DNA of 37,074 nt, taken from NCBI GenBank assembly GCA_036259375.1, contig DATABW010000285.1, positions 1-37,074 of the forward strand. The letters are read 5' to 3'. The stretch's first letter is position 1. Every line of letters begins with the position of its first letter. The notes below the pieces were generated by a model. The model was not told the origin of the DNA and searched no databases. It saw nothing but the letters and a program-made list of their open reading frames with translations. Shown here in pieces: positions 96 through 27,128 of this stretch. Position numbers and translations under genes: made by a program. Source of the DNA: Woeseiaceae bacterium (GTDB lineage: Bacteria; Pseudomonadota; Gammaproteobacteria; Steroidobacterales; Woeseiaceae).

Positions 96-171
96 GTCAT
101 TTCCCGTTTCCAAATCATGTTTTCGCGCAGCGCCCGCATCGGGGTGATTCGCCGGCGCGCCGCGCGGGGAT

Positions 172-210
172 GCAGCGGGCCCGCCTCACCACCGCGGCCC
201 TGACCTGACC
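172..210. repeat. Degenerate half-copy of the spacer palindrome family
   Basis: gcagcgggcccgcctcaccaccgcggccctgacctgacc aligns by eye with the left half of the 24982..25040 copy (gcagaagcgtctcacgggcggcctgacctcag). Confidence 0.3.
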
Positions 211-265
211 AGCCTTTGGGCGGCATAGCGAACGTCGTATGCAGCAGGGTTTCCATGACGGCTTC

Positions 266-2749
266 CTATGCGTGGCGTAGGGCATCCACCGGTGCAACGC
301 CGGTTGCGCGGCGGGCGGGCAGGACCGTGGCCAGCATGGCGACGGCGAATACACCGAAGCCGACCGCCGCGAACGTCGCTGGATCGGTGGCCGTGACGCC
401 GTATAAAAGGGATCCGAGCAGTCGTGTAGCAGCCAACGCAACAGCCAGCCCGATTGCCAGGCCGAAGGCCGCCAGCCGTGCCCCCTGCCCGGCCACGAGC
501 CCGATCACGTTCCCGCGGCTCGCTCCCAGCGCCATCCGGATGCCCAGTTCCGCAGTTCGCCGGGACACGATGTAGCTCAATACACCGTGGATACCGATGC
601 CCGCCAGCACAATCGCCACTGCGGCGAAGGCGCCGAGCAACAGCATCGTGAAACGCTGCCCGGAGACGCTGCGGCCGATCGTTTGCCGGAGCGGTTCGAC
701 ACCGAAGACTGCCAGCTCCGGATCGACATCGTGGATAGCCGAGCGCACGGAGGCCGCGAGAGCATCGGGGCGGCTACTCGTTCGCACCAGCAGCACCTCC
801 GAACCCAACGCGGGTGTCTGCGCAAGCGGCGTGTAAACGGCCGCCGGCGTGTCCGCCGTCAGCCCGTGGATTTTCTCGTTGGCGACAATACCCACAATGC
901 GCCTGTCGTCGCCCCAGAAGGCAATTCGCTGACCGATCGGATCCTGGTCCGGAAAATACCGGCTGGCGGCCGCCTCATTGATCAATGCCACCGTCGGCGC
1001 GTCGGTGCTGTCGGCTTCCGCGAATGCACGCCCGCGGTGCACGGCCAGGCGGACGGTATCGAAGTAGCCCGGCGTTACGCGCCGGATCGAAATTTCGGCG
1101 AAGCCCGCGGATTCCGCTTCCCGGCCCACGATCTGGAAAGAGTTGGTGAACCCCTGGTCCAGCGGGTGGCTGCCGGCGATGGCCGCGGCTTCCACACCGG
1201 GCAAGGCGTGCGTGCGCTCGAGCAGCGCGGCATTAAAGCGGTGCATCTCGCGGAAGTTCGGCCAGGTTGCGAAATCGGCGGGATAGCGGCTCTCCGGAAG
1301 CTGGAACTCGGCCTTGAGCACCTGCTCGGCACGAAATCCGGGATCGACCGCGAGGATCTGCCAGAAACTCTTCATCAGCAGCACTGCGCCCACGAGCAGC
1401 ACGACGGCGCCGGCGAGCTCGGCGACGACCAGGGCGGAGCGCAGCAGGCCGCGACCGGAGCTCTTCGTCCCGCCGGCCTCGGACTGCAATCCGCCTGTAA
1501 GATCGGCACGGCGGGCCTGCAGCGTCGGCACGAGGCCGAAAGCGACGCCGACAACCAACGAGATCGCCAGCGCTACGCCGAGCGGGCGCCAGTCGACGCC
1601 AACGGTCTCCAGCCGCGGAATGTCACCCGGCGCAAACCCCAGCAGCAGCTCCGTCCCCAGAACGGCGAGAACGACACCCGCCGCGCCCCCGACCAGTGCC
1701 AACAGGACGCCCTCCACCAGGAACTGCCGGGCCAACCGGCCGCCGCCGGCGCCGAGCGCCGCGCGAACCGCGACTTCCCGCGCGCGCCCGGACGACCGCG
1801 CCAGCAGCAGGTTGGCGACGTTGGCGCAGGCGACGAGCAGGACCAGCCCGACCGCGCAGAGCAGCACGAGCAATGCCGGGCGCACGTCGCCGAAGATGAC
1901 GGTGTCGAACGGCTCTACGTTCACACCGCGTGCGTCGTTCTCGGGGTACAGCCTTTCCAGCTCGGCGGCGATCGCCGCCAGCTCGAGCTGCGCAGCGTCG
2001 GGACCTGCTCCCCTGGTCAGCCGCCCGGCCACGAACATCGGGTGGGTATCGCGCGACCATTCTTCGGTGCTCTGCTGCAGCGGCATCCACACGCCGACCT
2101 GCTGGCGCCCGCCGCGATCCGCGAAACCGCGGGAGTAAGCCGCCGCTCCCAGGATCTGCAGCATCCCGAAGTCCGCGGAATCCGGAACGACGCCGACGAT
2201 GCTGTAGGCGACACCGTCCAGCCGTACCGTCCCGCCGAGCACTCCGGTATCTCGCCGGTAGAGCCGCTCCCATAGCCTTTCGGAGATCAGGACGACGTGG
2301 CCGCCGCCCGGCGCGGTTTCCTCAGCCGTGAAGGTTCGGCCGATTATCGGCTCGATGCCGAGCATCGGAAGCAGCTCGTGCGTGGACGACACGGCCGGCA
2401 GCCGCAGCGGCTCGCCACCCGCGTGTGTCAGGTTGACGTCGCCCGCAGCGAAGCCGGCCATTGTCTCGAAGGTTTCGCTTCGATCGCGGAAGTCGAGGTA
2501 ATCGGGAAGCGACGCCGGCTCGCGCGTCGTTCCGCTGTTTCGATCCGTCTCCCAGACCATCATCAGCCGTTCGGTTTCCGCAAACGGCGCGGGACGCAGC
2601 AACACGCCGTCGACGACGGAGAAGATCGCGGTATTGGCGCCTATGCCCAGTGCCAGCGTAACCACCGCGACAAGTGTAAACCCGGGGTTTTTCGCAAGCT
2701 GCCGAACGGCATAGCGAATGTCCTGGCCAATATTCGTTGTCAACTTCAC
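266..2749 (-). CDS. ADOP-type duplicated MacB/FtsX permease, paralogue 1 (827 aa)
   Basis: N-terminal TM1 signature [37 protein letters not shown]. Two FtsX-type blocks ([15 protein letters not shown]; [14 protein letters not shown]), each preceded by a long periplasmic segment. C-terminal tail VDALRHA. GTG start at 2749 with GGAGGG 7 nt upstream. Confidence 0.9.
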
Positions 2750-2806
2750 TTGCCAGCCCTCCGGGCGGCATGCCGCAGCTCCTGCAAAAGAGGCTCCAAG
2801 GCGGAT

Positions 2807-3130
2807 TTATCCCGTCTTGCAAATCCGGGCGGCGGGCGATTGCGCCCGACACATCCGCTTGATGTTCTCGGCCTCCCGCACGATCACCCTGGCACGTGCG
2901 ATGATCTCCTGGCCTACCGGGGTAATCCGGATAAGATTTTTTCCATGGCGCACGAATATCTCCACGCCGAGTTCCTCTTCCAGCTGCTTGAGTTGCTTGC
3001 TGACACCCGGTTGGGAGGTGTAAAGGCTGTTTGCTGCGGCGGTCATGTTCAGTCCGTTGTCGGCAATCGCAACCACGTATTTCAGTTGTCGTAGTTTCAA
3101 AGCGAAGTTCCTTTCCAATACTCCATTCAT
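2807..3130 (-). pseudogene. CysB/Cbl-like LysR-family regulator, HTH domain only (effector-binding domain missing)
   Basis: MNGVLERNFALKLRQLKYVVAIADNGLNMTAAANSLYTSQPGVSKQLKQLEEELGVEIFVRHGKNLIRITPVGQEIIARARVIVREAENIK closely parallels E. coli CysB residues 1-85 ([49 protein letters not shown]...). The ORF stops after 107 aa, whereas LysR proteins are about 300 aa. ATG 3130 overlaps the upstream TGA (ATGA). An alternative TTG start at 3100 gives (M)KLRQLKYVV. The segment is visibly more AT-rich than its neighbours. Confidence 0.6.
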
Positions 3131-5553
3131 TCGTGGCGCAGCGCCGCCACCGGCTCCAGTTTTGCGGCCCGATGCGCCGGGAGCCAGCACGCGACGAGCG
3201 CCGCCAGCAGCAGCACCCCGGCGGACGCGGCAAACGCCACGGGATCGTAGACGCCGACGCCGTGCAGCAGGTTGCCGAGCACGCGCGCGAACGCTAGCGA
3301 AGCGACCGCACCCGCGGCGAGACCCGCCAGCACGGTGCGAAGACCGCGCAGGACGATTTCTCGCTCGATACGTCCGTCGGTCGCGCCCAGCGACTTGCGA
3401 ATTCCGATCTCGCCCGTAGCGCGCACCACCTGCTGCGACAGCACGGCGTACAGCCCGACCAGCGCCAGCAGCAAGGCGCTGATGCCGAATGCGGCGATCA
3501 CGGCGAGGCGAAAGGCGCTGTCGCGGTACAGCCACGCAATAAAGGTCTGGAGCGGATCCACCCAGTCCACCGCGGAGTTCGGCGCCACCTCGGCCAGCCG
3601 GCGCTTCAACGGCTCGACGAACGTCGCAGGATCGCCGTCCACGTGCACCAGGGGCGAAACGATGCGCCGCGGCAGCTGGCGCAAGGACAGGTACATCTCG
3701 AAGCGGTGCAGCGCATTCTCCATCGGTCCGCCGAATTTGGCGTCGCGAACCACGCCCACGACCCGGTATTCGGAGCCGTTCAGGCGAACGAGCTGGTTCA
3801 GCGCCTGCTCCGAACCGCCGAACTGCGCGGCAAGTGACGCGCTGATGATGGCGCTGTTCGTCTCCAGCCGATCTTCGCGCCCGTCGAAGCCTCGCCCTGC
3901 CACCAGCGGAATCGCCAACGCGTCGAAGAAGCTGTCGCCGACGATGAAGTTACTGACGCGCAGCCCTTCCGGCTCGTCCGTCTCAATGGCCGCGTGCTGC
4001 AGCCGCCCCACGACGGGTTCGATGAGCGGCGCCGTCGGCCACACGAGACCTACGTCTCTCACGCCCTGCTCCGAGCGAAGCGTCGATTCGAGCCGCTCGT
4101 AGAACGCCGGCAGCCCCTCGTCGTCCGGTACATCGGCAGTGTTCACGAACAAGCCCATCCGCAAGCGGTTTTCGGTCGCGAAGCCGAGATCGGTGTCGCC
4201 GAGCTCCAGGTACGACCGGCCGAGGAGCGCGGCCGCGGTCACCAGCATGAGCGTCAACGCCAGCTCCACGCCGACGAGCCGCGAGCCCCAGCGGCTGGCA
4301 TGACCGGAGCCCGCCACCTTCGAATTTCCCTCACGCAGCGCCTCGGCCGCATCGACGCGGGCACCCAGCCAGGCCGGCAGCGCGGCCGCCGCGAAACCGG
4401 CCAGGAGGAGCACGGCGAAGGTCACTGCCAGCGTCGGCAGCTGCGGCGCCGGCTCCAGGTAACCGGGCACTGTGACGTCCGCGATTCCGAGAAAGAAATT
4501 GAGCAGCGGCGCCGCGAGGAGAACGCCCACGACCCCGCCGACGAACGCCAGCAGCATCGTTTCGCCGAGCACCTGCACCAGCAATTGCCGGCGCCCGGCG
4601 CCCAGCGCGCCGCGAACGGCGAACTCATGCCGCCGCTCGAGTGTGCGAGCCAGCAGCAACAGCGCCACGTTCACGACGGCGATTCCGAGCAGCAACAGGG
4701 CCGCCAGTCCGAACGCGGCGCTGGCGGTGCGGAACGGCGAACGCCAGTTCGCGCCGAACGGCTCGACGGTAAAGACGTGATCGTTTGCGAACGCGTCGAA
4801 TTCCCCTTCCAGCGCCGCGTTCAACGCATCGGCCTGCGCCTGCGCCTGTGCAAGCGTGGCTCCCGGCGCGAGCCGGCCCAGCGCGAGGAGGGCCTGCGCC
4901 GAGCGATCCTCCTGCAGCTCGTCGGTGAAGTAGTTCTCGAGTGGAATCCAGAACTCGAGATCGGGCATGTCCTCTTCGGTCGTGCCCACGAACTCGGGCG
5001 GCAGTACGCCGACAATCGTGTAAACGGCACCGGTGCCGTCGACCTGGTAGCTCACCCGCAGGGGCTGTCCCAGTACCTTCTCGTCGTAATTGAACTCGCG
5101 TCCCCAGGTGTCGTAGCTGAGAAGCAGTACGGCATCACCCCGCCGGTGTTCTTCCGCGCTGATCATGCGGCCGATGTATGGCTGGACGTCGAGCAGGTCG
5201 AAATACCCGGCGGTGATCGCCTCACCCTCCACCCGCCGCCCGATATCGCCCTCCCGGTGCCAGACCAGCCGCGCCCGTGCCGCGCTCTCGAGGGCGTCCA
5301 GCGCGGTGAGTCGCTCGCGAAGATCGCCGAAATCCCGGTAAGCGAGCATGTCGCGCTGCTCCGTACCGGCCTCCGAGTTCCAGATCCGGACGAACCGGTC
5401 GGCATCCGGGAACGGCGGCGCACGAAACGTCGTGAGGTCGATCAAGGTCGCGACCGCGGCGGTGGCGGCCATGCCGAGCGCGATGCAGAAAACGACCGCC
5501 AGGCTCAGTCGCGGGCTGCGGCGCAGGCCGCGGAACAGGATATTGAGATTCAC
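3127..5553 (-). CDS. ADOP-type duplicated MacB/FtsX permease, paralogue 2 (808 aa, divergent TM1)
   Basis: GTG start at 5553 with AAGGAG 9 nt upstream. TM1 is LSLAVVFCIALGMAATAAVATLID. FtsX blocks LLLLGIAVVNVALLLLART and RATGEIGIRKSLGA. C-terminal tail VAALRHE. Confidence 0.88.
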   Translation of the reverse strand: MNLNILFRGLRRSPRLSLAVVFCIALGMAATAAVATLIDLTTFRAPPFPDADRFVRIWNSEAGTEQRDMLAYRDFGDLRERLTALDALESAARARLVWHREGDIGRRVEGEAITAGYFDLLDVQPYIGRMISAEEHRRGDAVLLLSYDTWGREFNYDEKVLGQPLRVSYQVDGTGAVYTIVGVLPPEFVGTTEEDMPDLEFWIPLENYFTDELQEDRSAQALLALGRLAPGATLAQAQAQADALNAALEGEFDAFANDHVFTVEPFGANWRSPFRTASAAFGLAALLLLGIAVVNVALLLLARTLERRHEFAVRGALGAGRRQLLVQVLGETMLLAFVGGVVGVLLAAPLLNFFLGIADVTVPGYLEPAPQLPTLAVTFAVLLLAGFAAAALPAWLGARVDAAEALREGNSKVAGSGHASRWGSRLVGVELALTLMLVTAAALLGRSYLELGDTDLGFATENRLRMGLFVNTADVPDDEGLPAFYERLESTLRSEQGVRDVGLVWPTAPLIEPVVGRLQHAAIETDEPEGLRVSNFIVGDSFFDALAIPLVAGRGFDGREDRLETNSAIISASLAAQFGGSEQALNQLVRLNGSEYRVVGVVRDAKFGGPMENALHRFEMYLSLRQLPRRIVSPLVHVDGDPATFVEPLKRRLAEVAPNSAVDWVDPLQTFIAWLYRDSAFRLAVIAAFGISALLLALVGLYAVLSQQVVRATGEIGIRKSLGATDGRIEREIVLRGLRTVLAGLAAGAVASLAFARVLGNLLHGVGVYDPVAFAASAGVLLLAALVACWLPAHRAAKLEPVAALRHE

Positions 5554-5571
5554 CGGGTGTTCACTCCTTAA

Positions 5572-8106
5572 TCATTCCTCGCGCAGCACGCGCATGGGTT
5601 CGACGCGAGCAGCGCGCCATGCCGGCACGAAGCTGGCGGCCAGCGCAATCAGCGCGAAGAACAGCGCCGTGGCCAGGTAGGTCGGCAGATCGGTCGGCGT
5701 CACGCCCACGAGGAAGCCGCTGATGCTGCGACTCAATCCGACGGCCGCGACAGCGCCCAGGGACAGCCCGGCCGCGGCCAGCGCCAGTCCATAGCGCAGA
5801 AAAAGGTGAAAGATGTGGCGGCCCTCCGCGCCGAACGACATGCGCACGCCGATTTCGGCACGGCGGCTTCGAACCACGTAATAAATTACCGCATAAAGGC
5901 CAATGGCGGCGATCACCAGCGCGGCCGCGCCGAAGGCACCGATCAGCTGCAGCGCAAAACGTGTCCGCGCCATCGAATCGGCGAGGTAATCGCCCATCGG
6001 CCTGATCTTCGCAAGCGGCAGGCGAGCGTCGAGCCGGGCGAGCTCCCGCTTGATCTGCGGCACGAGGCTCAGCGGCTCGAGCTCGGTGCGCACGACCCAG
6101 TCGTTGATGCCGCCGACGGCGCCGGCGGTGCCATTGGCGAAATAAATTGTCTCGCGCGGCACCTCGTGCAGGCTTTCCTGTGCCTGGTGCCGCACGACGC
6201 CGACGACCTCGTAGGACGTCATCTCCGGGGTCGTCAGGCGCACCCAGACCCGCTGACCGATCGGGTCGGCGCCGGGCCAGGATTTCTGCGCCAGCGTATC
6301 GTCGACGACGACATACGGTCGCGCGTTCTTGTCGTCATCGCGTGTCAGGTAGCGTCCGGCCAAAAGCTCCGCCTGCGTCGTCTCGAAGTAGCCCGGCAGC
6401 ACCACGCGGTAATGCGCCTGGCTGAACTCGCTGGATTCATCGACCGCTGCGGCAGTGCTGTAGCGGCCGTGGAAAGGCTCGCCCGCCAGCGGCAGCGGCG
6501 TGATGCCTGACGCTGCCACCACGCCGGGAAGGTTCGAGAGGCGCTCCTGGAACGCTTCGAAGAAACGGCTTTGCGATTCGGGATCCGGGTAGCGTGTGAA
6601 CGGCAGGTTCAATTCGAAGGTCAGGAGCGGCTCCGCGTCGAAGCCGGGATCGACGCGTTGCAGTTCCATGAAGCTCCGGATCATGAGCCCTGTGCCGATC
6701 AAGAGCACGAAAGACAACGCGATCTCTCCCACGACCAGCCCGGTCCGCAGCCGGTTTCCACCGGAGGACCCGGCCATGCCGGTCCGCTCCTTGAGTTGAT
6801 CCACGATGCGCAGGCGGGACCCGTGTACCGCGGGGACGAGTCCGGCGAGAACGGTCGTCAGCGCCGCAACGGCGATCGTGAACAGCAGCACGCCCCCGTC
6901 TATACCGGCGGTGTCGAGTCGCGCGATGTTGTCCGGCGCGGAAAGCAGCAGTAGCTTCAGGCCGGCGAACGCCAGCAGCGCGCCGGCCGCCGCTCCGGCC
7001 AGCGCGAGGACGCCCGCTTCGAGCAACATCTGCCGGATGAGGCGGCCGCGTCCCGCACCAAGAGCGGAGCGTACCGACAGCTCCCGTATGCGGCCCGCGG
7101 CACGCACCAGCAACAGGTTCGCCACGTTTGCGCAGGCAATCAGGAGAACGAAGAACGCGGCGCCGAACAGCGCCCACAAGGTCGCCCGGACATCCGCGGT
7201 CAACTCGGTATCGAACGGCCGGACCCACTTGCGCGAGCCCCCGGCTGCGAAGGACGGCTCTACCTCGCTGAGACGCGCGGATATCGCGTCCATCTCGTCC
7301 TGGGCCTGCGCGACCGTCACGCCGTCTTTCAGACGGCCGATCATTTGCATGAACACGTTGTTCCGCGGCGCGGCGGCGAGATCGACCCGCGACGGCACCC
7401 AGATGTCGATGTCCGACGCCACGCCCGCCGGCGCCGGCATGTGCAGGCGGAAATTCGGCGGCAGCACGCCCACGATCTCGACCGGGCCGCCGCCCAGCTC
7501 GACGATTTCACCGACCGCTCCCGGATCGCCGCCGAACTCGCGCTGCCACAAGCCATGACTGATGATGGCCGTGCGCGGCGGTGCAAACGCGTTCCCGGGA
7601 GGCGGAGTGCCGGGCGGCACGTCGGAGGCGCTGAAGGCGCCGTCCTTCGCATCGAATCCGCGGCCGAGCATCGGCTCCACGCCCAGCACGGACAGGAAAT
7701 TCCAGGTCGCTATGCCCGCAGTCAGTTGCCGCGGTTCGGCGCCGTCGCGCACGAAAGGCTGACCGAAGCTGAAGACGCCGGCGAGATCCTGGAAGAGTTG
7801 CGACTGTTGCCGATAATCCTCGAGGTTGGTCGGCGACTCCGGGAAATGCATGACATCGCGCGCGGCAAGCTCGCCCCAGATCATGACCAGCCGGTCCGGC
7901 TCGCGATACGGCAGCGGATCGAGCAATACCCGGTTCACGACGCTGAATATCGCCGTGGTGGCGCCAATGCCGAGGGCGAGCAGCAACACGGCGCTGGCAA
8001 AAAGCGCGGGGCTTTTCAGCAACGAGCGGAACACGTGCTTCAAATCAAAAGCCAGGTTTGTCACTAGAGCATCCTCGATCGCTGGTCGGCTGAGTTCTCG
8101 CCGCAT
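5572..8106 (-). CDS. ADOP-type duplicated MacB/FtsX permease, paralogue 3 (844 aa, or 830 aa from GTG 8064)
   Basis: [37 protein letters not shown]; [16 protein letters not shown]; [13 protein letters not shown]; tail MRVLREE. GTG at 8064 has a GAGGA 7 nt upstream and matches the N-terminal length of the other paralogues better than ATG 8106. Confidence 0.88.
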
Positions 8107-8138
8107 GGCGGCGCGCGACGGCGACGCCGGGTCAGTGT

Positions 8139-8166
8139 CTGCAGTGTGATCTTCACGGGCAATGCC
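8139..8166. repeat. Degenerate half-copy of the spacer palindrome family
   Basis: ctgcagtgtgatcttcacgggcaatgcc resembles the left half cagaagcgtctcacgggcggcc of the 24982..25040 copy. No matching right half was seen. Confidence 0.3.
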
Positions 8167-8173
8167 GCCACGC

Positions 8174-10585
8174 CTATTCCTCCCGCAACACGCGCATCGG
8201 CTGCGTGCGCCCTGCGCGCCAGGCGGGTATTGCCGTCGCAGCCAGCGCCACGGCGAGCAGCAGCGCGGCGACGCCGCCGAAGACCAGGGGGTCCAATGGA
8301 TGCACCTCGTACAACAGCGCGCCGAATCCGCGCGTGATGAGCGCGGTCAGCGCCAGCCCGATGCCGATACCCGCCAGCGCGAGCAGCATTCCCTGCCGCA
8401 GGACGAGGCTGAGCACGGTTCCGCCGCTGGCACCCAGCGCCATGCGCACGCCGAATTCGCGCCGTCGTTGCGCCGCTGCATAGGACAGCGTTCCGTACAC
8501 GCCGATTACGGCGATGAGCAACGCCGCCGCCGCAAAGGCGCCGACGAGCGCTGCGGTCGAGCGCGCCGGCTGCAGGGAGGCATCGACCAGCGCCGTCATC
8601 GGGCGCACGCTGTCAACGGCGACCGTCGGGTCCAGCGCCGCCACCGCATCGCGCAGCGGCCCTGCCAGCAGCAACGGATCGCCGGCGGCTTGCAGGGCAA
8701 GAAACAGCAGGCGCTGGGGATAGAGGTACAGCGGCAGGTAGGCCGCCGGCGTCTGCCGCTGGTCGACACCGAAGAACCGCACGTCGTCGACGACGCCGAT
8801 GATCGTGAGCCAGTTGCCGTCGCCGGGATCGCCCGGCGTTACGCGCTGACCCACCGCGTCGGTGCCGCCGAAATACTGCCGCGCGAAAGCTGCGTTAACG
8901 ACGATGTGCCCTGCGCTTCCGTTCCGGTCCTGCTCGGTGAAAACGCGCCCCTGCACCGGGCGGATATTCAGCGCTTCCAGATAGCCGGGAGTCACGATGC
9001 TGTACCACATGTGCGCGCGCCCGTCCCGCCGCTCCGTCGGCCGGCCTTCGATGAACAGGCTGGCATCGGTATTGAGGTCCGCCAGCGGCAATGAATGCGT
9101 CAGGCCTGCTTGCCTGACGCCGGGCAGCGCCCCCAGCCGCTCGTCGAGCGCGTGCTGGAAAGCCCGCAATGCGTCCGCATCCCCGTAGGAGGCCTCCGGC
9201 AGGGTGATGGTCGCGGTGAGGACACCGTCGGCCCGGAAGCCGGGATCGACCGCTTCCAGCTTGACCAGGCTCCTGGCGAACAGGCCGGCGCCGACGGTAA
9301 GCGCGAGCGCCAGCGCGAAGTTGGCGACCACCAGCACGTTACGCGTGCGCGACGATATCGAGGTGTTTCCGCCACGCTCGCCGCCACGCAGTACGCCGAC
9401 GGGATCGGCACCGCCGGCCCGGAACGCCGGAATCAGACCGAACGCGATACCGGTAACGAGGCCGGCCAGCACCGCGACCGCAAGCACCCGCAGGTCGATG
9501 ACGGGCGCGACGTACTCGGTGATGCCGCCCGGCAGCTGGCTGTGCATTGCGCTTATCGCGAGTTCGGCGAACAGGAGCCCGAGCAAGGTGCCGCCGAGCG
9601 AGAGCAGCACACTTTCGAGGACCACCAGCTTCATCAGCGCCCCGCGCCGCGCGCCCAATGTGCCACGGATCGCAAGCTCGCGCGCCCGGCCGGCCGCCCG
9701 CACCAGCAGCAGGTTCGCGATGTTCACGCAGGCCACGAGCAGCACGAAACCCACTGCCGCCCACAGCACCAGCAGGCGGAGGCGGACGCCGTCCACTACA
9801 GCATCCTTCAGCGGCTGGACGTAAATGCCGATATCTTCGTTCGTCTCCCGGAACTCACTGCTGATGCGCGCGGCGATGGTGCTCATGTCCGCGGTTGCGC
9901 TTTCGATGTCAGCGCCAGGCGCCAGCCGCCCGATGACGCGCAGGAAGGCACTGCCCCGCCCCTCGCGTTCGGCTTGCAATAACGTCCAGACGTCGCGATC
10001 GGGCATGAACGGAAAGGAGAAGCCGCGCGGCAGCACTCCGATGATGCTGTAAGGCTCGCCATTGAGCGTCAGCGTCTGCTGCAATACGCCGGGATCGCTC
10101 TTCAGCTCGCCCCGCCAGAAGGCATTACTGACGACCGCCACGTTCGGTCCGTTCGGCACGTCCTCCTGCGCGGCGAACCCACGACCGATCTGCAATCGGA
10201 TACCGAGCACGTCGAAGAACGAGTGGCTGACCCCGGCCCCGGCCAGCAGGCGCGGATCGCCGAACCCCGTCAGAGCCGGGCTCGTCTCCTCGTAGGCCGC
10301 CATGTCCTCGATCGTGCGGGACTGCTCCCGCCAATCGGCGAAATCCGCGGGGTTGGTGTAGTCGTCACGCTGCGCGCCTCGCTTGCTCCAGTCCGCCCAT
10401 ACGGCGACGAGGCGTTCCGGCTCCGGATACGGCAGCGACCGGAGCAGCGTCTGGTCGACCAGGCTGAAGACCGCCGTATTCGCGCCTATCGCGAGCGCAA
10501 GCGTCAGCAGCGTCACGACGGTGAACACGGGCGTGCGCCGCAATCCGCGGAGCACGTGTCTCAAATCGAGCGAGTTCAGGAGCAT
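8174..10585 (-). CDS. ADOP-type duplicated MacB/FtsX permease, paralogue 4 (803 aa)
   Basis: [37 protein letters not shown]; [16 protein letters not shown]; [13 protein letters not shown]; tail MRVLREE. ATG 10585 is preceded by AAGGAT. Confidence 0.9.
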
Positions 10586-10598
10586 CGCTTATCCTTAT

Positions 10599-10913
10599 TC
10601 AGCGCGGCCGCCGCGAACACGTCGAGCAGCAGCATGTAAAACCGCGGCTGTGCCACCGAATCGGCAGGCGCTGCTCCATCTTCCGCAGGTCGTCCAGCGG
10701 CAGTTGGCTATCGATTAGATGCAGCTCGTCGCGAATCGGTTTGGCAAGCAACGCCGGCGGCAGCGGCTTCAGCAGCACGCTGTTGACGACGCTGAAAATG
10801 GCCGTGTTTGCGCCAATGCCGATGGCGCGCGTCAAAACCGCGACCGCGCTGAAGCCCGGGCTCTTCAGCAGTGCCCGAATGGCGTAACGAAGATCGTGCA
10901 GCACGCTACTCAT
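10599..10913 (-). pseudogene. Decayed ADOP permease copy (N-terminal 52 aa joined to a C-terminal segment, then frameshifted and truncated)
   Basis: [52 protein letters not shown] is a normal ADOP N-terminus. It is followed directly by [31 protein letters not shown], which corresponds to the end of the second periplasmic domain (compare [25 protein letters not shown] in paralogue 5). A frame change near 10662 exposes [22 protein letters not shown], the next TM helix. The sequence then runs into the RBS and ATG of paralogue 4. Confidence 0.75.
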
Positions 10914-13347: not shown

Positions 13348-13357
13348 GGCCTCCTCT

Positions 13358-15859: not shown

Positions 15860-15924
15860 ATTCCTCCCCCTGGTGCTCCCATCCGGCAATAATCGTAGGC
15901 CCGGCCCTGATTACGCGAGATCCC

Positions 15925-17460
15925 ATGCTGTTTCTGAAACTGGCGGAAACGTCCGATGCGGTAGCGGCGACGCGCAGCCGCCTGAAGAAGATCGACCTGC
16001 TTCGCGACTGTCTCGAGCAGTTCGGACCGGCTGAAATCGAAACCGGCGTCGGCTACCTGGCCGGCAGCCTGCGCCAGGGACGCATCGGGCTCGGCCCGGC
16101 CATCGTGCGCGACGTGCTCGCAGCCGAGGCCGCCAGTGAGCCCACGCTCAGAATCGGAGACGTGGACAACGCGTTCGAGGAGATCGCGGGGTTTTCCGGC
16201 AAGGGGTCGGCTGCCGCACGAAAGCGCCGGCTCCGCGACCTTTTTGCCAGCGCCACGGCGACGGAACAGGATTTTCTCGCTCGCCTGGTGCTCGGCGAGC
16301 TGCGGCAGGGTGCGCTGGAAGGCGTCATGGCGGACGCGATCGCCAGGGCCGCCGACTTGCCGGTCCGCGAGGTACGCCGCGCGGTGATGCTCGCCGGCAA
16401 TCCGGCGCTCGTGGCGGAAGCCGCCCTGACCGAAGGCCGCGCGGGACTGGAGGCGTTCCGGCTGGAGCTGCTGAAGCCGGTGCAGCCGATGCTCGCCCAG
16501 ACGGCGGAAAGCACGGCGGCGGCTCTCGACGTGTTCGGCGAAGCGGCGTTTGAATACAAGCTGGACGGCGCCCGGATCCAGGTGCACAAGGCCGGCGGGG
16601 ACATCCGCATCTTCACCCGGCAGCTCAACGAGGTTTCCGTGCGCTTGCCGGAGATCGTCGATGCGGTCCGGAAATTGCCGGCGCGCGCGCTGATTCTCGA
16701 CGGCGAAGTCATTGCGCTCCGCGGCGACGGCACGCCGCACCCGTTCCAGGTCACGATGCGGCGTTTCGGCCGCAAGCTCGATGTCGAAGGCCTGCGCGAA
16801 TCGTTGCCCCTGGACGCGTTCTTTTTCGATTGCCTGCACGCTGACGGCGAGGACCTGCTCGACCGGACGGCCGCCGAGCGTGTCGAGGCAATGTCCCGCG
16901 CACTGCCCGCCGGGCTGCGGATCCCGCGGCTCGTGACGTCGGACCGAGAGGCCGCCGCCAGTTTCCTGGAGCAGGCGCTCGCCGCCGGGCACGAAGGACT
17001 GATGGCCAAGGCGCTGGACAGCCTTTACGAAGCCGGTAATCGCGGCGCCGGCTGGCTCAAGATAAAACCCGCGCACACGCTCGACCTCGCCATCATCGCC
17101 GCGGAATGGGGCAGCGGCCGCCGCCGCGGCTGGCTGAGCAACCTGCATCTCGCCGCCCGCGATCCGGACAGCGGCGACTTCGTCATGCTCGGGAAAACGT
17201 TCAAGGGGATGACGGACAAGATGCTCGCCTGGCAGACGAAACGCCTGCTGGAGCTCGAAACCGGGCGCGAGGGACACGTGGTGTACGTACGCCCGGAGCT
17301 CGTCGTCGAGATTGCCTTCAACGACCTGCAGGCCAGCCCACACTATCCGGGCGGCATGGCGCTGCGCTTCGCTCGCGTCAAACGCTACCGTGAAGACAAA
17401 GGGCCGGAAGACGCGGACACCCTCGACACCGTGCGGCAGATCTTCGAGCGACGGGCGTGA
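15925..17460 (+). CDS. ATP-dependent DNA ligase (three-domain Lig I / LigB-like, 511 aa)
   Basis: Ligase motifs are seen in order: adenylation site EYKLDGARIQVHK (KxDG), ILDGEVIAL, FFFDCLHADGEDL, EGLMAK, WLKIKP, and C-terminal RFARVKRYREDK. Confidence 0.93.
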   Translation: MLFLKLAETSDAVAATRSRLKKIDLLRDCLEQFGPAEIETGVGYLAGSLRQGRIGLGPAIVRDVLAAEAASEPTLRIGDVDNAFEEIAGFSGKGSAAARKRRLRDLFASATATEQDFLARLVLGELRQGALEGVMADAIARAADLPVREVRRAVMLAGNPALVAEAALTEGRAGLEAFRLELLKPVQPMLAQTAESTAAALDVFGEAAFEYKLDGARIQVHKAGGDIRIFTRQLNEVSVRLPEIVDAVRKLPARALILDGEVIALRGDGTPHPFQVTMRRFGRKLDVEGLRESLPLDAFFFDCLHADGEDLLDRTAAERVEAMSRALPAGLRIPRLVTSDREAAASFLEQALAAGHEGLMAKALDSLYEAGNRGAGWLKIKPAHTLDLAIIAAEWGSGRRRGWLSNLHLAARDPDSGDFVMLGKTFKGMTDKMLAWQTKRLLELETGREGHVVYVRPELVVEIAFNDLQASPHYPGGMALRFARVKRYREDKGPEDADTLDTVRQIFERRA

Positions 17461-17470
17461 TCCGGAATTG

Positions 17471-17533
17471 CAGGAGCCCGTTTCCAGGGCGACGCGGCAT
17501 CGACGTGCGGGCCGCCCGTGAGACGGGCTCCTG
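17471..17533. repeat. ~63-nt imperfect palindromic spacer element (REP-like), archetype copy
   Basis: caggagcccgt (17471..17481) is the exact reverse complement of acgggctcctg (17523..17533). The inner arms gggcg/cgccc also pair. It contains the core cccgtgagacggg (17515..17527). It lies between the convergent stops of the ligase and paralogue 7, with no U-tract. Confidence 0.7.
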
Positions 17534-17557
17534 AATGTCCGATACGCGCCCCGACCC

Positions 17558-19984
17558 TTATTCATACCGCAAAGCTTCCATCGGGTTCACGCGCATCGCG
17601 CGCAGCGCCGGGACCAGGGACGCGAGCAACGCCACGGTAAGCAGTATCAGCGCAACCCCCAGCAGGGTCGACGGATCGAACGGCGACACGCCCGCCAGCA
17701 TCGCCGACAGCAACCGCGCGAATACGACGGCGCATGCGAGTCCCACGGCCAGCCCAATGCCGAGTTGCCAGGCGCCCTGGCCGAGGATCATGTTGAGAAT
17801 GCGGCCGTCGAGGGCCCCGAGCGCGCGGCGCACGCCGATTTCGCGGGTGCGCTGGGCCACCGAGTACGCGAGCACGCTGTAGATGCCGGCCGCCGACAAC
17901 GCGACGGCGACGAACGCGAAGATGCCGAACAGCGTCGAGACGATGCGCGACGTGAAGTGCCCCGCCCACACCCAGTCGTCGAGCGTACGAACCCAGTAGA
18001 CCGGAATGTCGGCATCGATCTGGCGTACCGTCTCGCGCAAGGTTTGCGCGAACGCCAACGGCTCACCGCGTGTGTCGACCGCAACCGTGAGGAACCGCTG
18101 GGGCACCTGCACGAGTGGCACGAAAACCGAGGGCCGCTCCGGATCGTCCAGCGCGTCCATCGTCGTCGCTTCGGTGACGCCGACGATGGTATGCCAGCGG
18201 CTGTTTGCGTCCTCCGCTTCCCCGAGCAGGATCTGGATCTCCTGACCGACCGGGTCGCCGTCGGGAAACACTGCCTGTGCGAACCGCTGGTCGACAATGA
18301 CGACCGGCTCGCTTCCCGCGTGCTCGCGGGAATCGAACCAGCGGCCTTTCAACAGGTCGAGGCCGAGCACATCGGCAAAGTTGTTCATGACGCCGGCATA
18401 GGTCGCCCAGGGCAGCTGCCCCGATTCAGGCATTTCCATTGCGCGCGTGCGGTAGGGCACGCTCCATGAGTCGAGGCCGGGATACGAGTACGCCACGGTG
18501 GCTCCGACTACGTCCGGATCCCGGTTCAGCCGCTCGACCAGTTCTTCGAAGAACCGGAACTGCGATGCCCCGTCCGGGTACTGCGCCTCCGGCAGCCCGA
18601 TGCGCCCCGTCAGCAGCTGCGTATTCTCGATGCCGAGCGGGCGCGAGTTGAGGTTCAGGACGCTCTTGATCATCAACCCGGAGCTGACGAGCAGGATGCA
18701 TGACAGCGCGATCTCCGCCGTGACCAGAGTGCGGCTCAATCGCGACGCCGACGCGCCGCTACCCTTCGCGCCTTCCTTCAGGTATTCGTTCACATCCGTG
18801 CGGGTGGCGCGCAGCGCCGGCGCAAGCCCGGCGATCACGCCCGCGGCCACGGCTACGCAGGCGGCGAACAGCATGACCCGCCCGTCGAGGTCGAACGTGA
18901 CCCAGAACGGCAACTGGATGCCGGCCGCGACGAATGCTCGGTCCGTCAGGTCGAGACCTGCGTCGGCGAGGAACCAGCCAATGGCCGCTCCGATCGACGC
19001 AAGCACCACGCTTTCCGTCAGCACGTGCACGAGAATGCGCCAGCGGCTGGCGCCGAGCGCGGCGCGCAGCGCGATGTCCTTCTGACGCGCCGAGGTCCGC
19101 GCAAGGATCAGGTTTGCAACGTTCGCGCACGCGATCAGCAGCACCAGCAGCACCGCGATGAACATGGCCGAAATGCTCGTGCGGGCTTCCTCGGCGATGT
19201 ATTCCTGCTGGAACGGCTTGATGACGGTCGTGATGTTTTCGTTGGCTTCGTAACGCTCGGCGAGCGCCGCAGCGATGTTGGCGAACTCGGCGCGCGCCTG
19301 CTCCAGCGTCACCCCGCGCTTCAGACGCCCGAATGCCTCCACGGTCATGCCTTCGCCACGATCGATCTTCGACAGGTCGACGATGAGCGGCACCCAGATT
19401 TCCTGCGCCAGCGGGAACGCGAAGCCCTCGGGCATGACGCCGACCACGGTGCTCGGGACGCCGTTCACGCGCACCGTCCGGCCAAGAATGCCCGGATCGC
19501 CGTCATAGCGGTTGAGCCAGGCCTCGTAACCCAGCACGATCACGGGCTCGGCGCCGGGCGCGCTATCGGCGGGCACGAGCGTGCGGCCGATATGGGCGTC
19601 CTGCCGGATGACCTCGAAGGCCGAGGGCGTGATGAACGCGCCCTCGTAGCGCTCCGGCAGCTCGCCCCCGGACAGGTTGACCGTACCGACGTAGAAGGCC
19701 GCCAGTGTCTCGAAGCTCTGCTGCACTTCCCGCCAATCGATGAAATCGTGCTGCGTCACTTCCATGCTGTCGAACCCGTGCAGCGGATTCGCACGCTCGA
19801 TGTGCATGATGCGGTCGGCATTGGGGTACGGCAGCGGCGTCAGCATGTACGCATTGACGACGGTGAACATGTACAGGGTCACGCCGAGCCCCAGCGCGAG
19901 TATGCCCGCGGCCACAGCGGTGAATCCCGGGCTGTGCCGCAGTTGGCTGAGGGTCAGTCGAATTTCGTGCCAGATCGCCCGCAT
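17558..19984 (-). CDS. ADOP-type duplicated MacB/FtsX permease, paralogue 7 (808 aa, divergent TM1)
   Basis: [37 protein letters not shown]; [16 protein letters not shown]; QRTREIGVRRALGA; tail MEALRYE. ATG 19984 is preceded by AAGGAAG. Confidence 0.9.
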   Translation of the reverse strand: MRAIWHEIRLTLSQLRHSPGFTAVAAGILALGLGVTLYMFTVVNAYMLTPLPYPNADRIMHIERANPLHGFDSMEVTQHDFIDWREVQQSFETLAAFYVGTVNLSGGELPERYEGAFITPSAFEVIRQDAHIGRTLVPADSAPGAEPVIVLGYEAWLNRYDGDPGILGRTVRVNGVPSTVVGVMPEGFAFPLAQEIWVPLIVDLSKIDRGEGMTVEAFGRLKRGVTLEQARAEFANIAAALAERYEANENITTVIKPFQQEYIAEEARTSISAMFIAVLLVLLIACANVANLILARTSARQKDIALRAALGASRWRILVHVLTESVVLASIGAAIGWFLADAGLDLTDRAFVAAGIQLPFWVTFDLDGRVMLFAACVAVAAGVIAGLAPALRATRTDVNEYLKEGAKGSGASASRLSRTLVTAEIALSCILLVSSGLMIKSVLNLNSRPLGIENTQLLTGRIGLPEAQYPDGASQFRFFEELVERLNRDPDVVGATVAYSYPGLDSWSVPYRTRAMEMPESGQLPWATYAGVMNNFADVLGLDLLKGRWFDSREHAGSEPVVIVDQRFAQAVFPDGDPVGQEIQILLGEAEDANSRWHTIVGVTEATTMDALDDPERPSVFVPLVQVPQRFLTVAVDTRGEPLAFAQTLRETVRQIDADIPVYWVRTLDDWVWAGHFTSRIVSTLFGIFAFVAVALSAAGIYSVLAYSVAQRTREIGVRRALGALDGRILNMILGQGAWQLGIGLAVGLACAVVFARLLSAMLAGVSPFDPSTLLGVALILLTVALLASLVPALRAMRVNPMEALRYE

Positions 19985-20004
19985 TTTTTCTTCCTTAAAG
20001 GCCG

Positions 20005-20049
20005 GATCGCCCGTGAGACGGGTTCCTGCAGGAGCGCCTCACGGACGCC
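20005..20049. repeat. Spacer palindrome family, permuted/compact copy
   Basis: gatcgcccgtgagacgggttcctgcaggagcgcctcacggacgcc has the family right-end motif (cgcccgtgagacggg.tcctg) abutting the left-end motif (caggagcgcctcacgg) across a CTGCAG centre. ccgtgag (20011..20017) pairs with ctcacgg (20038..20044). Confidence 0.6.
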
Positions 20050-20074
20050 CCGAACTCCAACAGCGTTTCAACGT

Positions 20075-22498: not shown

Positions 22499-24963
22499 TG
22501 GTGGCGCAGCGCGGCGACCGGGCTGATGCGGGTCGCCCTCAAGGCCGGCAACGTGCAGGCCGCCAGCCCGACAGCGACCAGCAGGAGCGGTACCAGCAAG
22601 TACGTGAGCGGATCGAACGTCGAGACCCCGAAGAGGAGTGACGCCAGGAAGCGCGTCAGCGCGAAGGCGGCCAGCACTCCGAAGACCAGCCCTGCCCCCA
22701 CCAGCCACGCACCCTGTCCCAGCACCAGGCCGAGCACGTTCGACGACTGCGCGCCGAGAGCCATGCGCACGCCGAGTTCCGTGGTGCGCTGGCCGACGAC
22801 GTACGCGAGCACGCCGTAGATGCCGACAACGGCGAGCAGCACCGCGACCACCGCGAACACGGACAGGAGCAGGGTGGGCGCCCGCTGGCTGCCGAGTGAC
22901 TGCTCGATGCGCTCGCTCATGCTCATCATGTTGAAGACCGGCTGCTCGGGGTCGACCGCGAGCACGGCCGCGCTGATCTGCCGGCCCGCGGAGGCCGCCG
23001 GCAGCACCGTCCGGACAACCAGCGATGCCCAGCCGGGCGGCCGCTGACGGTAAAAGTGATAGTAGGTTTCCTTGGACGGGGCTTCGTGCAGCCGATCCCC
23101 TTTGATCGTACCGACGACCCCCACGATGGTGGACCACACCGGTTCGCCGTCATCGTTCTCCTGGTTGCTGATGCGCCGGCCGATCGGGTTCTCGTCCGCG
23201 AAATACTTGTCGGCCAGCAACTGGTCGATGATCACGGCGTGCGGCGAGTCGACTCCGTCCAGCGCGGCGTCGAACAGGCGCCCGCGCAGCAACGGGATGC
23301 CCATGGCGCGGAAATAGTCGGCGCTGACCGTACGGGAGTGGCCGTGGGGCGAGCTTTCGCCGGCGGCGAGCGTTCGGCCTTCGATGTCGTAGCTTGCCTG
23401 GTTACCGTCCTGGTTGAAGGGCAGGACGTTGGTCGCGCCGGCGGCAACGACGCCCGGCTGGCGCTCGATGCCGGCAAGCACGGCATCGAGGAAGCGGCGG
23501 CGCTCGTTGTCATCGCTGTATTTGCTGCCGGACAGCTCCATCTGCACGGCCACGACGTCTTCCGGATTGAAACCCGGCGATTCGTTCAGCAGCTTTTCGA
23601 AACTTCTCAGCAGGAGCCCCGCGCCGATCAGCAACGTCGCCGCCATCGCGACCTGCAGGGAGACCAGCACGCCGCGCGCGAACAAGGCGCCGCGGCTCGC
23701 GGTTTGCCCGCCGCCCTCCTTTACCACCTGTTGCAGGTCCAACCGCCACAAGGCGATCACGGAGATGAGGCTGAACGCGATCCCGGCCGCCACGGAGACG
23801 AAGAATGCGAATGCCAGCACCCAGGGATCGATGACGACGTCGAAATTCTGCGCGCTCCGGTCGATGCCGAACAGCTCGATCAACCGAATCACGATCCAGG
23901 ACAGCGACAAGCCGACGAAGCCGCCGCCGAGCCCCAGCAGCACGCCCTCGAACACGAGCTGCCGGCTGACCCGCAGCCGTTCCGCGCCCACGGCGGCGCG
24001 CACCGCCAGTTCCTTGGCGCGTCCGAGGACCCGCGCGAGCATCAGGTTCGCGACATTGGCGCAGGCGATCAGCAGCACGAACACGACTACCCCCTGCAGC
24101 ACGAGCAGGGTAAGCCGCACGTCCCCCACCTGGTACTCCCGCCAGGTTTGCGCGCGGCCCGTAAAGCCGGTGCGCTCCAGGAACTCCGCGTAATCCGCTG
24201 CGCGTTCGGAGGCGCCGACGAAGCGGTCCTTGTTGGACTGCACGATCGCGTCCATCTGGGCATCGAGCTGCGCGATGGTCGCACCCGGCTTCAGCCGCCC
24301 GATGCTCGTCGAAAACTCCCAGCCGCGCGACTCGTCGGAGACCATCTCAGGCGTGAACGCGAACGGCACGTAGAGATCGACGTCGCGGTTCGGGAAGGAA
24401 AAACCCTGCGGCATGACGCCGATGACGCGGTAGCTGTCGCCGTTCAGCCGGATATCTTTGCCGACGATGCCGCGATCGCTGCCGAAGCGATTCGACCAGA
24501 CCTCGTGCGTGAGGATCGCCACCCGCTCGTTGCCGGGTACTGCCTCGTCTTCGCTGAAGGAGCGGCCGATCAACGGGCTCACCCGCAGCGTCGAGAACAG
24601 CGACGGCGAGGCAACCAACCCGAGCAGGCGCTCCGCCGCGCCGCTGGCGGCGAGATTGAACGAGCTCCAGGTGTAGAGGGCCGAGTCCGCGAGCGCGCTG
24701 GCCTGTTCGCGCCGGTCGAGGTAGTCCGGAACGGAGACGCCGGCATTCTCCAGCCCGTTGCCGGGGTAGGTATTGTGGATCTCGACCAGGCGTTCGCCGT
24801 CCGGGTACGGCAGCGGCTTCAGCATGAATGCGTTGATAACGCTGAAGATCGCCGTATTGGCGCCTATGCCGAGGGCCAGCGTCAGTACGGCTGCGATGAC
24901 GAAACCGGGCCTTGCGCGAAGCGCGCGGTAGGCGAAGCGGACGTCGTCAATAATCGCTCTCAT
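22495..24963 (-). CDS. ADOP-type duplicated MacB/FtsX permease, paralogue 9 (822 aa)
   Basis: [37 protein letters not shown]; [16 protein letters not shown]; [14 protein letters not shown]; tail VAALRHQ. Confidence 0.9.
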   Translation of the reverse strand: MRAIIDDVRFAYRALRARPGFVIAAVLTLALGIGANTAIFSVINAFMLKPLPYPDGERLVEIHNTYPGNGLENAGVSVPDYLDRREQASALADSALYTWSSFNLAASGAAERLLGLVASPSLFSTLRVSPLIGRSFSEDEAVPGNERVAILTHEVWSNRFGSDRGIVGKDIRLNGDSYRVIGVMPQGFSFPNRDVDLYVPFAFTPEMVSDESRGWEFSTSIGRLKPGATIAQLDAQMDAIVQSNKDRFVGASERAADYAEFLERTGFTGRAQTWREYQVGDVRLTLLVLQGVVVFVLLIACANVANLMLARVLGRAKELAVRAAVGAERLRVSRQLVFEGVLLGLGGGFVGLSLSWIVIRLIELFGIDRSAQNFDVVIDPWVLAFAFFVSVAAGIAFSLISVIALWRLDLQQVVKEGGGQTASRGALFARGVLVSLQVAMAATLLIGAGLLLRSFEKLLNESPGFNPEDVVAVQMELSGSKYSDDNERRRFLDAVLAGIERQPGVVAAGATNVLPFNQDGNQASYDIEGRTLAAGESSPHGHSRTVSADYFRAMGIPLLRGRLFDAALDGVDSPHAVIIDQLLADKYFADENPIGRRISNQENDDGEPVWSTIVGVVGTIKGDRLHEAPSKETYYHFYRQRPPGWASLVVRTVLPAASAGRQISAAVLAVDPEQPVFNMMSMSERIEQSLGSQRAPTLLLSVFAVVAVLLAVVGIYGVLAYVVGQRTTELGVRMALGAQSSNVLGLVLGQGAWLVGAGLVFGVLAAFALTRFLASLLFGVSTFDPLTYLLVPLLLVAVGLAACTLPALRATRISPVAALRHQ

Positions 24964-27112: not shown

Positions 27113-27128
27113 TGCACAGGGCGTGCCA
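27113..27128 (-). promoter_or_regulatory. Candidate sigma-54 (-24/-12) promoter for the MFP-ATPase-permease unit
   Basis: The minus strand reads C-TGGCACG-CCCT-GTGCA-A, against the consensus YTGGCACG-N4-TTGCW: correct spacing and one mismatch. The -12 element lies 44 nt upstream of ATG 27068. Two GTGTTCGG direct repeats (27153..27160 and 27180..27187) lie just upstream. Confidence 0.45.

Follow-up and report, generated by a model that had tools for sequence, protein, structure and literature searches.

A contig of 37,074 nucleotides (nt) assigned to a Woeseiaceae bacterium (GenBank assembly GCA_036259375.1, contig DATABW010000285.1), which in its entirety is referred to here as the window, carries on its minus strand nine full-length genes for ADOP-type permeases (P1 to P9) that are headed by genes for a periplasmic adaptor and a separate ATP-binding cassette (ABC) ATPase. 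We interpret the locus as a regulated Type VII (MacB-class) ABC system for efflux or extraction, with fused-dimer permeases that are interchangeable and work on one engine, and we assign this reading a probability of roughly 0.55. The locus is not an oddity; it adds one more example of a recurrent cassette to a family that is widespread, already catalogued, and uncharacterised, and the value added here is the reconstructed context of the system together with a testable shared-engine hypothesis.

Nine ADOP-type permeases in a co-oriented array

The permease genes lie in the order P1 (positions 266-2749, 827 aa), P2 (3127-5553, 808 aa), P3 (5572-8106, 844 aa, or 830 aa if started at V15), P4 (8174-10585, 803 aa), P5 (10906-13347, 813 aa), P6 (13358-15859, 833 aa), P7 (17558-19984, 808 aa), P8 (20075-22498, 807 aa), and P9 (22495-24963, 822 aa), so that on the minus strand P9 is read first and P1 is probably the final permease of the locus. 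All nine proteins matched the TIGR03434 model (curated cutoff 622.3 bits) end to end, and eight of them scored 808 to 991 bits (P1, 881; P3, 826.9 and aligned from residue 19; P4, 852.2; P5, 920.6; P6, 808; P7, 832.2; P8, 991.5; P9, 873.7). The most divergent, P2, scored 608.6 bits, slightly under the cutoff, and is termed ADOP-like rather than a formal member. Each of the nine, P2 included, contains two PF12704 (MacB_PCD) and two PF02687 (FtsX) domains and lacks a PF00005 domain, such that two MacB-like halves are fused in a single chain. The first transmembrane helix (TM1) is divergent in P2 and P7.

These searches bear out much of a first-pass annotation made from the DNA alone, which had described nine intact minus-strand ADOP genes plus one relic (here, nine open reading frames of 803 to 844 aa and a relic at 10913-10671), had placed the proteins in the ADOP family, and had noted the unusual TM1 helices of P2 and P7. 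Its picture of the periplasmic domains was right in part. They are the least conserved segments, with mean pairwise identities among the paralogues of 27-30% in comparison to 40-43% for the FtsX blocks and 47% for TM1, but they are not unalignable, as the MacB_PCD matches have E-values of 1e-30 to 1e-40. The tight junctions that it reported were recovered (10 nt between P6 and P5, 18 nt between P3 and P2, and a 4-nt ATGA overlap between P9 and P8), as were palindrome-bearing spacers of 84, 90, and 97 nt. A single uninterrupted array was not: a DNA ligase gene on the plus strand occupies the 1698-nt gap between P7 and P6, a gene for a LysR/CysB-family protein that consists of little beyond a helix-turn-helix (HTH) domain lies in the 377 nt separating P2 from P1, and the 320 nt separating P5 from P4 hold the ADOP relic.

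Predicted structure of the permeases

An AlphaFold2 model of P8 (pLDDT 84.8, pTM 0.76) predicts eight transmembrane (TM) helices and two periplasmic domains. The first half comprises a helix at residues 19-48, a periplasmic domain, and helices at 278-309, 324-360, and 375-401; the second half repeats this arrangement with a helix at 417-455, a periplasmic domain, and helices at 676-710, 725-761, and 770-795. The last of the structural elements, a C-terminal helix, corresponds to the ALRxE tail highlighted in the first-pass annotation. The features that define a Type VII transporter are present in the model: a four-TM unit, a large periplasmic domain carried on stalk helices between TM1 and TM2, and a major coupling helix between TM2 and TM3, predicted as helical at residues 311-319 and 712-720. 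The corresponding RxxExGxRxALGA motif is intact twice in all nine permeases, again including P2, and these motifs are the best-conserved segments of the family, with 59-62% mean pairwise identity versus 34% overall. This conservation suggests, from sequence, that all nine permeases dock onto a common type of nucleotide-binding domain (NBD).

When the P8 model was searched with Foldseek, YbbP was the first match over the full length, followed by MacB, Spr0695, LolCDE, BceAB, YtrEF, and HrtBA, so that the earlier analogy to MacB-like transporters appears fair on the basis of the predicted fold. By sequence the closest solved relative is MacB (E 2e-21 per half). We conclude that every permease joins two MacB halves into a fused pseudo-dimer with two Porter/Sabre periplasmic domains. 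A sizeable subset of full-length ADOP homologues is longer (870-900 aa) and carries an N-terminal extension of about 80 residues, which is absent from all nine window proteins.

An adaptor and two ATPases accompany the permeases

Upstream of P9 on the same strand, with successive gaps of 26 and 84 nt, lie the genes for the adaptor (25815-27068, 417 aa) and for ATPase1 (25048-25788, 246 aa). The adaptor is an HlyD/MacA-type periplasmic protein (membrane fusion protein) that scored 98.4 bits against TIGR01730 (cutoff 94.9), matched HlyD_3 (PF13437) and HlyD_D23 (PF16576), and aligned to DarC over its full length. ATPase1 is a PF00005 protein of the MacB/LolD/DarD class; its NCBIfam scores were 246 bits for DarD, 228 for the MacB NBD, and 219 for LolD, with YbbA, DevA, and FtsE also matched, and its best matches in the PDB were Spr0694, MJ0796, the MacB NBD, LolD, and YbbA. 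The adaptor is 90-91% identical to its counterparts in the related loci L003 and L004, with ratios of nonsynonymous to synonymous substitution rates (dN/dS) of 0.07-0.09, and 63-65% identical across genera. ATPase1 is 93-97% identical to its relatives (dN/dS 0.03-0.06); a look-up of its exact sequence returned no recorded contig. At comparable synonymous divergence (dS), both proteins are under much tighter constraint than the permeases and the ligase (dN/dS 0.13-0.18 for the latter).

A second MacB-class ATPase gene begins 170 nt downstream of P1 and is truncated by the contig end (ATPase2, 1-95, minus strand). Of the 31 residues encoded by this fragment, 28 are identical to a 223-aa ATPase that follows the last ADOP gene of L167, and the fragment also matches ATPase2 of L163 and a second ATPase class in L095, L122, and L151. 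ADOP arrays are likewise accompanied by an ATPase gene in L001, L003, L004, L161, and L163-L167. The orphan status implied by the family name therefore does not hold at this locus, where an adaptor and a MacB-class ATPase head the array and a second ATPase follows it. Elsewhere, the arrays of L147, L132, L158, and L151 have two or three ATPase genes, belonging to two distinct classes, set between the permease genes, and the ratio of ATPases to permeases is therefore variable.

A search of the window, and of the region that precedes the adaptor gene in seven related loci, found no gene for an outer-membrane factor; the upstream open reading frames in L084, L101, L122, L137, L147, and L149 are unrelated housekeeping genes, such as those for BipA, DnaA, GH127, and a lectin. 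The tolC gene of E. coli is also unlinked to macAB.

Promoter, regulators, and an embedded HTH-only gene

A sigma-54-type promoter motif, TGGCACGCCCTGTGCA (27113-27128, minus strand), is situated 45 nt upstream of the adaptor ATG and is the sole site in the window within one mismatch of TGGCAC-N5-TTGCW. In L003, L004, L161, L165, L163 (Wenzhouxiangella), and L164 ('Halomonas denitrificans'), an equivalent element precedes the adaptor gene by 26-60 nt, so that the motif is kept in seven loci from at least four genera. A two-mismatch site upstream of P1 (2783-2798) was rejected on the grounds that L167 has only 5 nt at that location; 14 such two-mismatch sites are expected by chance in the window. 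The window scan found no sigma-54 site before P6. The 65 nt (15860-15924) that separate P6 from the divergently oriented ligase gene hold a conserved block, GGCCGGGCCTnCGATTATTGCC, that is also present in the equivalents of L001, L002, and L003. It fits neither the sigma-54 nor the sigma-70 consensus and may serve the downstream half of the array as a promoter or operator. Scans of positions 1-20000 for sigma-70 promoters and terminators yielded nothing exceeding shuffle expectation, and our literature search found nothing linking sigma-54 to MacB-type arrays.

Regulatory genes close the cassette in relatives. A sigma-54 response regulator and a histidine kinase are found at its end in L163, L164, L166, and L167, and in the latter two the array ends in the order ADOP gene, HTH-only gene, ADOP gene (the P1 orthologue in L167), ATPase2 (223 aa), NtrC-type regulator, and histidine kinase. 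Because the ATPase2 fragment matches that of L167 so closely, the window appears to stop just short of the regulator genes. The L167 kinase possesses two N-terminal TM helices separated by a loop of about seven residues and has no periplasmic domain. The kinases that close the L166 and L167 cassettes are of an intramembrane-sensing type that recalls BceS, yet their partner is an NtrC-type regulator.

The HTH-only gene (2807-3130, minus strand, 107 aa) overlaps the P2 stop codon by ATGA. Its product scored 68.6 bits for PF00126 and aligned to residues 1-87 of the CysB model NF009326. The gene is located at the same array position in the window, in L167 (9696-9995), and in L166 (14994-15365), where it encodes 99 to 123 aa made up of the HTH and a linker, and in the three genomes its GC content is consistently about 10 points under the surroundings (0.55 versus 0.67 for the window here). 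We considered whether it could be a dead relic and rejected this on the basis of conserved orthologues with dN/dS of 0.07-0.18, values that indicate a functional small gene as judged from sequence comparison.

Age of the array and selection on its members

Pairwise, the nine permeases are only 27-44% identical overall, whereas individual members have much closer counterparts in other loci. P9 orthologues of 76-79% identity occur in L001 and L002 (only a 67-aa P9 relic is left in L003), P7 orthologues of 81-84% in L001, L002, and L003, P6 orthologues of 75-80% in L001 (two copies), L002, L003, L008, and L161, a P5 orthologue of 78% in L008, a partial P4 orthologue of 72% in L001, and a P1 orthologue of 79% in L167, where it is followed by ATPase2, the response regulator, and the histidine kinase. 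Homologues of P8 reach 78-83% in metagenomes and 67% in a Longimicrobiales metagenome-assembled genome (MAG). As the first-pass annotation had proposed, the family in this array diversified long ago and does not stem from recent amplification; the support is the low paralogue identity set beside orthologues of P4, P5, P6, P7, and P9 at 72-84% in related Woeseiaceae genomes and homologues of P1 and P8 at about 80% in public data.

Substitution rates were estimated between orthologues, the synonymous sites of the paralogues being saturated at 27-44% identity. For the permeases dN/dS ranged from 0.01 to 0.39 over all domains and was mostly 0.1-0.3, values that are approximate because dS (0.3-1.6, with domain means of 0.7-1.0) is near saturation. 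The periplasmic domains evolve about 1.5 to 2 times faster than the TM blocks (dN of 0.17-0.20 versus 0.09-0.13) and have dN/dS of about 0.13-0.30. They are the fastest-evolving parts of the permeases, yet they are under purifying selection, and the term 'hypervariable' once applied to them is not warranted. A view of the locus as a pseudogene graveyard was rejected on account of nine full-length genes, intact motifs, and orthologues under purifying selection.

Gene content differs among relatives: L001 contains two P6-like and two P7-like genes and is missing P8, and in L004 P7 is present as a relic. This variation in copy number is birth-and-death turnover of old paralogues. Outside the Woeseiaceae, the nearest homologues of P8 and P1 (63-67%) are found in MAGs of Longimicrobiales (Gemmatimonadota), in comparison to at most 44% for paralogues within the array. 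Since these Longimicrobiales homologues are far closer than the array paralogues, the sequences suggest that single permease genes may have been transferred between phyla. Transfer of the whole array from Gemmatimonadota was rejected, as L162 (Longimicrobiales) matches P8 at 67% and the rest at 39-44%.

Recurrence of the cassette

A metagenome sample of 80 ADOP loci with 162 ADOP genes was examined. A same-strand ADOP neighbour was present for 94 of the 162 genes, and 10 of the 33 loci of at least 12 kb contained three or more ADOP genes. The metagenome loci L084, L092, and L149 have an adaptor gene, an ATPase gene, and then four to seven ADOP genes, and the adaptor-ATPase-(ADOP)n order was found altogether in L084, L092, L101, L147, L149, L161, L163, L164, and L165. 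In a Longimicrobiales MAG an ATPase gene is followed by at least eight ADOP genes, and on a Woeseia sp. contig eleven permease genes were observed and one more was deduced from a gap. Small cassettes exist in cultured carriers, namely Wenzhouxiangella sediminis with three permeases and 'Halomonas denitrificans' with two, which makes genetics and biochemistry feasible. In the synteny comparison proposed in the first-pass annotation, such cassettes recurred in metagenomes, Gemmatimonadota, and gammaproteobacterial relatives, and copy number varied between relatives. Two properties that it had raised together, that arrays of this kind might be routine and already characterised, came apart: such arrays are routine, and one has been published (PMC3914696), but none that has been functionally characterised was found.

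ADOP-type permeases are among the largest bacterial membrane-protein families without an assigned function; with P8 as the query, about 75,000 representatives of clusters at 50% identity were retrieved at E≤1e-30. Its members abound in soil Acidobacteriota, Gemmatimonadota, and Bacteroidota and also, as found here, in Gammaproteobacteria. The conserved context (sigma-54 promoter, adaptor, one or two ATPases, permeases in expandable number, a small HTH protein, and a two-component system) offers a testable shared-engine model to replace the label of orphan permease.

Ligase gene, relics, and repeats

The ATP-dependent DNA ligase gene that splits the array (15925-17460, plus strand; NF002868, 756 bits) encodes a protein 76-83% identical to ligases of Woeseiaceae soil MAGs (Gammaproteobacteria), and the relatives of the adaptor, P1, and P8 agree with this placement. 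The first-pass annotation had looked to Acidobacteriota or Gemmatimonadota for related genomes; the affinities of the ligase, adaptor, and permeases place the host elsewhere. ADOP genes also flank the ligase gene in L001-L004 and L008, and in those contigs that are long enough (L001, L003, and L004) an ATPase gene lies upstream, together with the adaptor gene in L003 and L004. Because the ligase gene is absent from the arrays of L161, L165, and L166 (the last two being the Woeseia sp. contig), and because it stands beside Ada/oxygenase repair genes in L006 and L009, we conclude that it is an interloper and not a component of the transporter. In the window, genes for Ada and a DNA-repair oxygenase are found at 32701-34526 on the minus strand, 15 kb from the ligase gene, and the repair cluster seems to have been pulled apart through rearrangement or growth of the array.

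The ADOP relic between P5 and P4 occupies an open reading frame of 104 codons (10599-10913, minus strand), of which the ADOP part (10913-10671) comprises an N-terminal segment of about 50 aa with TM1 followed by degenerate sequence. It is 60-72% identical to P1, P5, P8, and P9 across about 45 aa and was matched by eight paralogues in tblastn (lowest E 2e-14), with no Pfam match for the reading frame. The frame begins in an 8-nt overlap with the P5 stop and encodes TM1 together with the amphipathic helix at the N terminus; it could be translated as a small membrane protein. A candidate second relic, an ADOP C-terminal tail (RAARRRITPMRALREN) at 119-181 on the minus strand, had only weak similarity (blastp-short E 0.28-0.55); it was rejected as statistically not significant, being suggestive through its position only.

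One REP-like (repetitive extragenic palindrome) unit, approximately CTGCAGGAGCCCGTCTCACGGGCG, is present as inverted pairs in three spacers: the 84-nt spacer between ATPase1 and P9 (24980-25041), the 90-nt spacer between P8 and P7 (20003-20052), and the 97-nt spacer at the convergent ends of P7 and the ligase gene (17453-17551, with 44-nt arms). These palindromes might act in differential mRNA stability or as partial terminators within the operon. The window contains no tRNA or tmRNA gene and no Rfam family at the gathering score, and therefore has no sign of an integrative element or riboswitch. PADLOC assigned no anti-phage defence family to the permease, adaptor, or ligase and gave only generic ABC matches for the ATPase.

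Proposed mechanism and alternatives

According to our interpretation, transcription would start at the sigma-54 promoter and proceed through the adaptor, ATPase1, P9-P8-P7, the ligase gene on the opposite strand, P6-P5, the relic, P4-P3-P2, the LysR-type HTH-only gene, P1, and ATPase2, with an NtrC-type response regulator and a histidine kinase expected from the relatives beyond the contig end. Each permease would bind two copies of the shared ATPase, and ATP would move the periplasmic domains, as the published mechanotransmission mechanism of Type VII transporters leads one to expect (PMC5985334, PMC12646458). The conserved adaptor suggests a tripartite route, along which the substrate would probably move through the adaptor, used in common by the permeases, into an outer-membrane duct encoded elsewhere. 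Nine specificities on a single engine would then be provided by the nine paralogues, which have been retained for a long time. A more elaborate form of this proposal, which we offer only tentatively, is a modular machine in which as many as twelve interchangeable permeases share, and compete for, the adaptor and one or two ATPases under a dedicated sigma-54 two-component switch, and in which the membrane-embedded kinase may read transporter activity. If correct, it would mirror, among exporters, the energising module that group II energy-coupling factor (ECF) transporters have in common, and 'orphan' ADOP permeases in general would be clients of shared ATPases.

Several observations weigh against the interpretation of a regulated efflux or extraction system on one engine. 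Many metagenomic ADOP genes are solitary, with no ATPase gene within 10 kb, and the family can therefore use unlinked ATPases. The conservation of ATPase1 is weak evidence of sharing, because ABC ATPases evolve slowly in general, and the dN/dS values are approximate, dS values of 0.5-1.4 being near saturation. An outer-membrane factor gene is lacking at all the places searched, the ligase insertion leaves P6-P1 without an identified promoter, and synteny is the basis for placing the regulator and kinase, which fall outside the window, at this locus. Our search of the literature on the TIGR03434/ADOP family returned no functional study; nothing came up under the TIGR03434 identifier, and just two papers mention the family by name, for other than functional reasons.

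An alternative that we consider unlikely, though it accounts for part of the evidence, is that the permeases are not efflux pumps but periplasmic extraction or mechanotransmission machines resembling LolCDE, YbbAP-TesA, or FtsEX, which take a lipid, a lipoprotein, or some other hydrophobic molecule out of the inner membrane or drive a partner in the periplasm, with the adaptor serving only some of them. The top structural match over the full length is YbbP, and YbbAP has been proposed to extract hydrophobic compounds for a bound hydrolase (PMC12646458); an acyl-CoA thioesterase gene is part of a published ADOP cluster in Psychroflexus, and the absence of a linked outer-membrane factor gene also suits such a role. 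The first gene of the cassette, however, encodes an HlyD/MacA-type adaptor retained at 90% in close relatives and 63-65% across genera, which points to a tripartite conduit, and neither the window nor the related cassettes include a gene for a hydrolase or for a LolA-like or EnvC-like partner.

It is improbable that the transporters are mainly sensing modules in the manner of Bce systems, whose activity is read by the intramembrane-type kinase and whose paralogues widen the range of signals inducing the sigma-54 operon. The architecture of the L167 kinase, with its short loop and no periplasmic domain, speaks for such a scheme, and the Type VII transporter BceAB is known to form a complex with its kinase (PDB 8g3a, 8s5g; PMC9169098, PMC11009047). 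Nevertheless, the kinase and regulator are outside the window, the regulator is of the NtrC type and not the OmpR type, and the ADOP proteins have eight TM helices and two periplasmic domains versus ten helices and a single domain in BceB. Least credible is that the array is a by-product of tandem duplication, with largely redundant copies, ATPases encoded elsewhere, and an adaptor/ATPase adjacency that matters only for P9: copy number and order do differ among close relatives, relics are present in the window, L003, and L004, and solitary genes are frequent in a family that was named 'orphan', but paralogues of 27-44% identity are not recent copies, individual members persist as orthologues with dN/dS mostly 0.1-0.3, and the order adaptor-ATPase-(ADOP)n is seen again in different genera and phyla.

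Comparison with known systems

The name ADOP stands for 'acidobacterial duplicated orphan permease', where 'orphan' denotes a permease with no adjacent or fused ABC ATPase gene. The locus described here has one ATPase gene 84 nt before P9 and another 170 nt after P1. Its ligase, adaptor, P1, and P8 have their closest relatives in the Woeseiaceae, and the ADOP family spans phyla. The nearest published parallel is genomic island 43 of Psychroflexus torquis, reported in 2014, a 42-kb cluster with ten ADOP paralogues that is highly translated, is of unknown function, and includes the acyl-CoA thioesterase gene (PMC3914696). The two loci have in common duplicated MacB_PCD and FtsX domains, large tandem clusters of diverged genes, nearby genes for ATP-binding transporter proteins, and the lack of an assigned function. 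The locus here differs in being gammaproteobacterial, in being headed by an adaptor and an ATPase with a sigma-54 promoter, and in its embedded HTH-only gene and the terminal two-component system of its relatives.

The darobactin exporter DarBCD (NF038007, NF038008, NF038010) similarly combines an adaptor, a separate MacB-class ATPase, and a long FtsX-type permease (777-position model); DarD is the best NCBIfam match of both ATPases, and DarC aligns to the adaptor over its full length. The scores are nevertheless far under the equivalog cutoffs (246 versus 375, 78 versus 450, and 24 versus 700), DarBCD has a single permease, and the window is without a gene for a ribosomally synthesized and post-translationally modified peptide precursor or a radical S-adenosylmethionine enzyme. 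BceAB-BceRS shares with the relatives L166 and L167 a Type VII transporter beside a two-component system whose kinase lacks a periplasmic sensor. In contrast to the ADOP cassettes, BceB has ten TM helices and one extracellular domain, the regulator is of the OmpR type, the hosts are Firmicutes, and there is no adaptor and only a single permease.

YbbAP-TesA of E. coli (PDB 9ge6-9ge8; PMC12646458) resembles the ADOP permeases in that YbbP is a fused pseudo-symmetric chain with two periplasmic domains and two coupling helices, and YbbP is bound by two copies of a separate ATPase (PMC12646458). YbbP differs in having ten TM helices, including a TM5/6 linker pair, versus eight in ADOP; the sequence identity is 14%, and phmmer gave no match between the permeases and YbbP at E<0.001. 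YbbAP is single-copy and has no adaptor, and the window contains neither an SGNH nor a TesA-like gene. MacAB-TolC (E. coli, A. baumannii, and A. actinomycetemcomitans; PDB 5nik, 5gko, 5lil) has the Type VII fold and the Porter/Sabre domain in common with the ADOP permeases, along with a coupling helix bearing the RTxEIGIRxALGA motif and an adjacent gene for a MacA-type adaptor; its outer-membrane factor is unlinked, as would probably also be the case here. The MacB NBD is fused at the N terminus, and the protein is a homodimer of four-TM chains, whereas here an eight-TM chain is served by a separate NBD gene and nine permease genes stand behind a single adaptor and ATPase gene.

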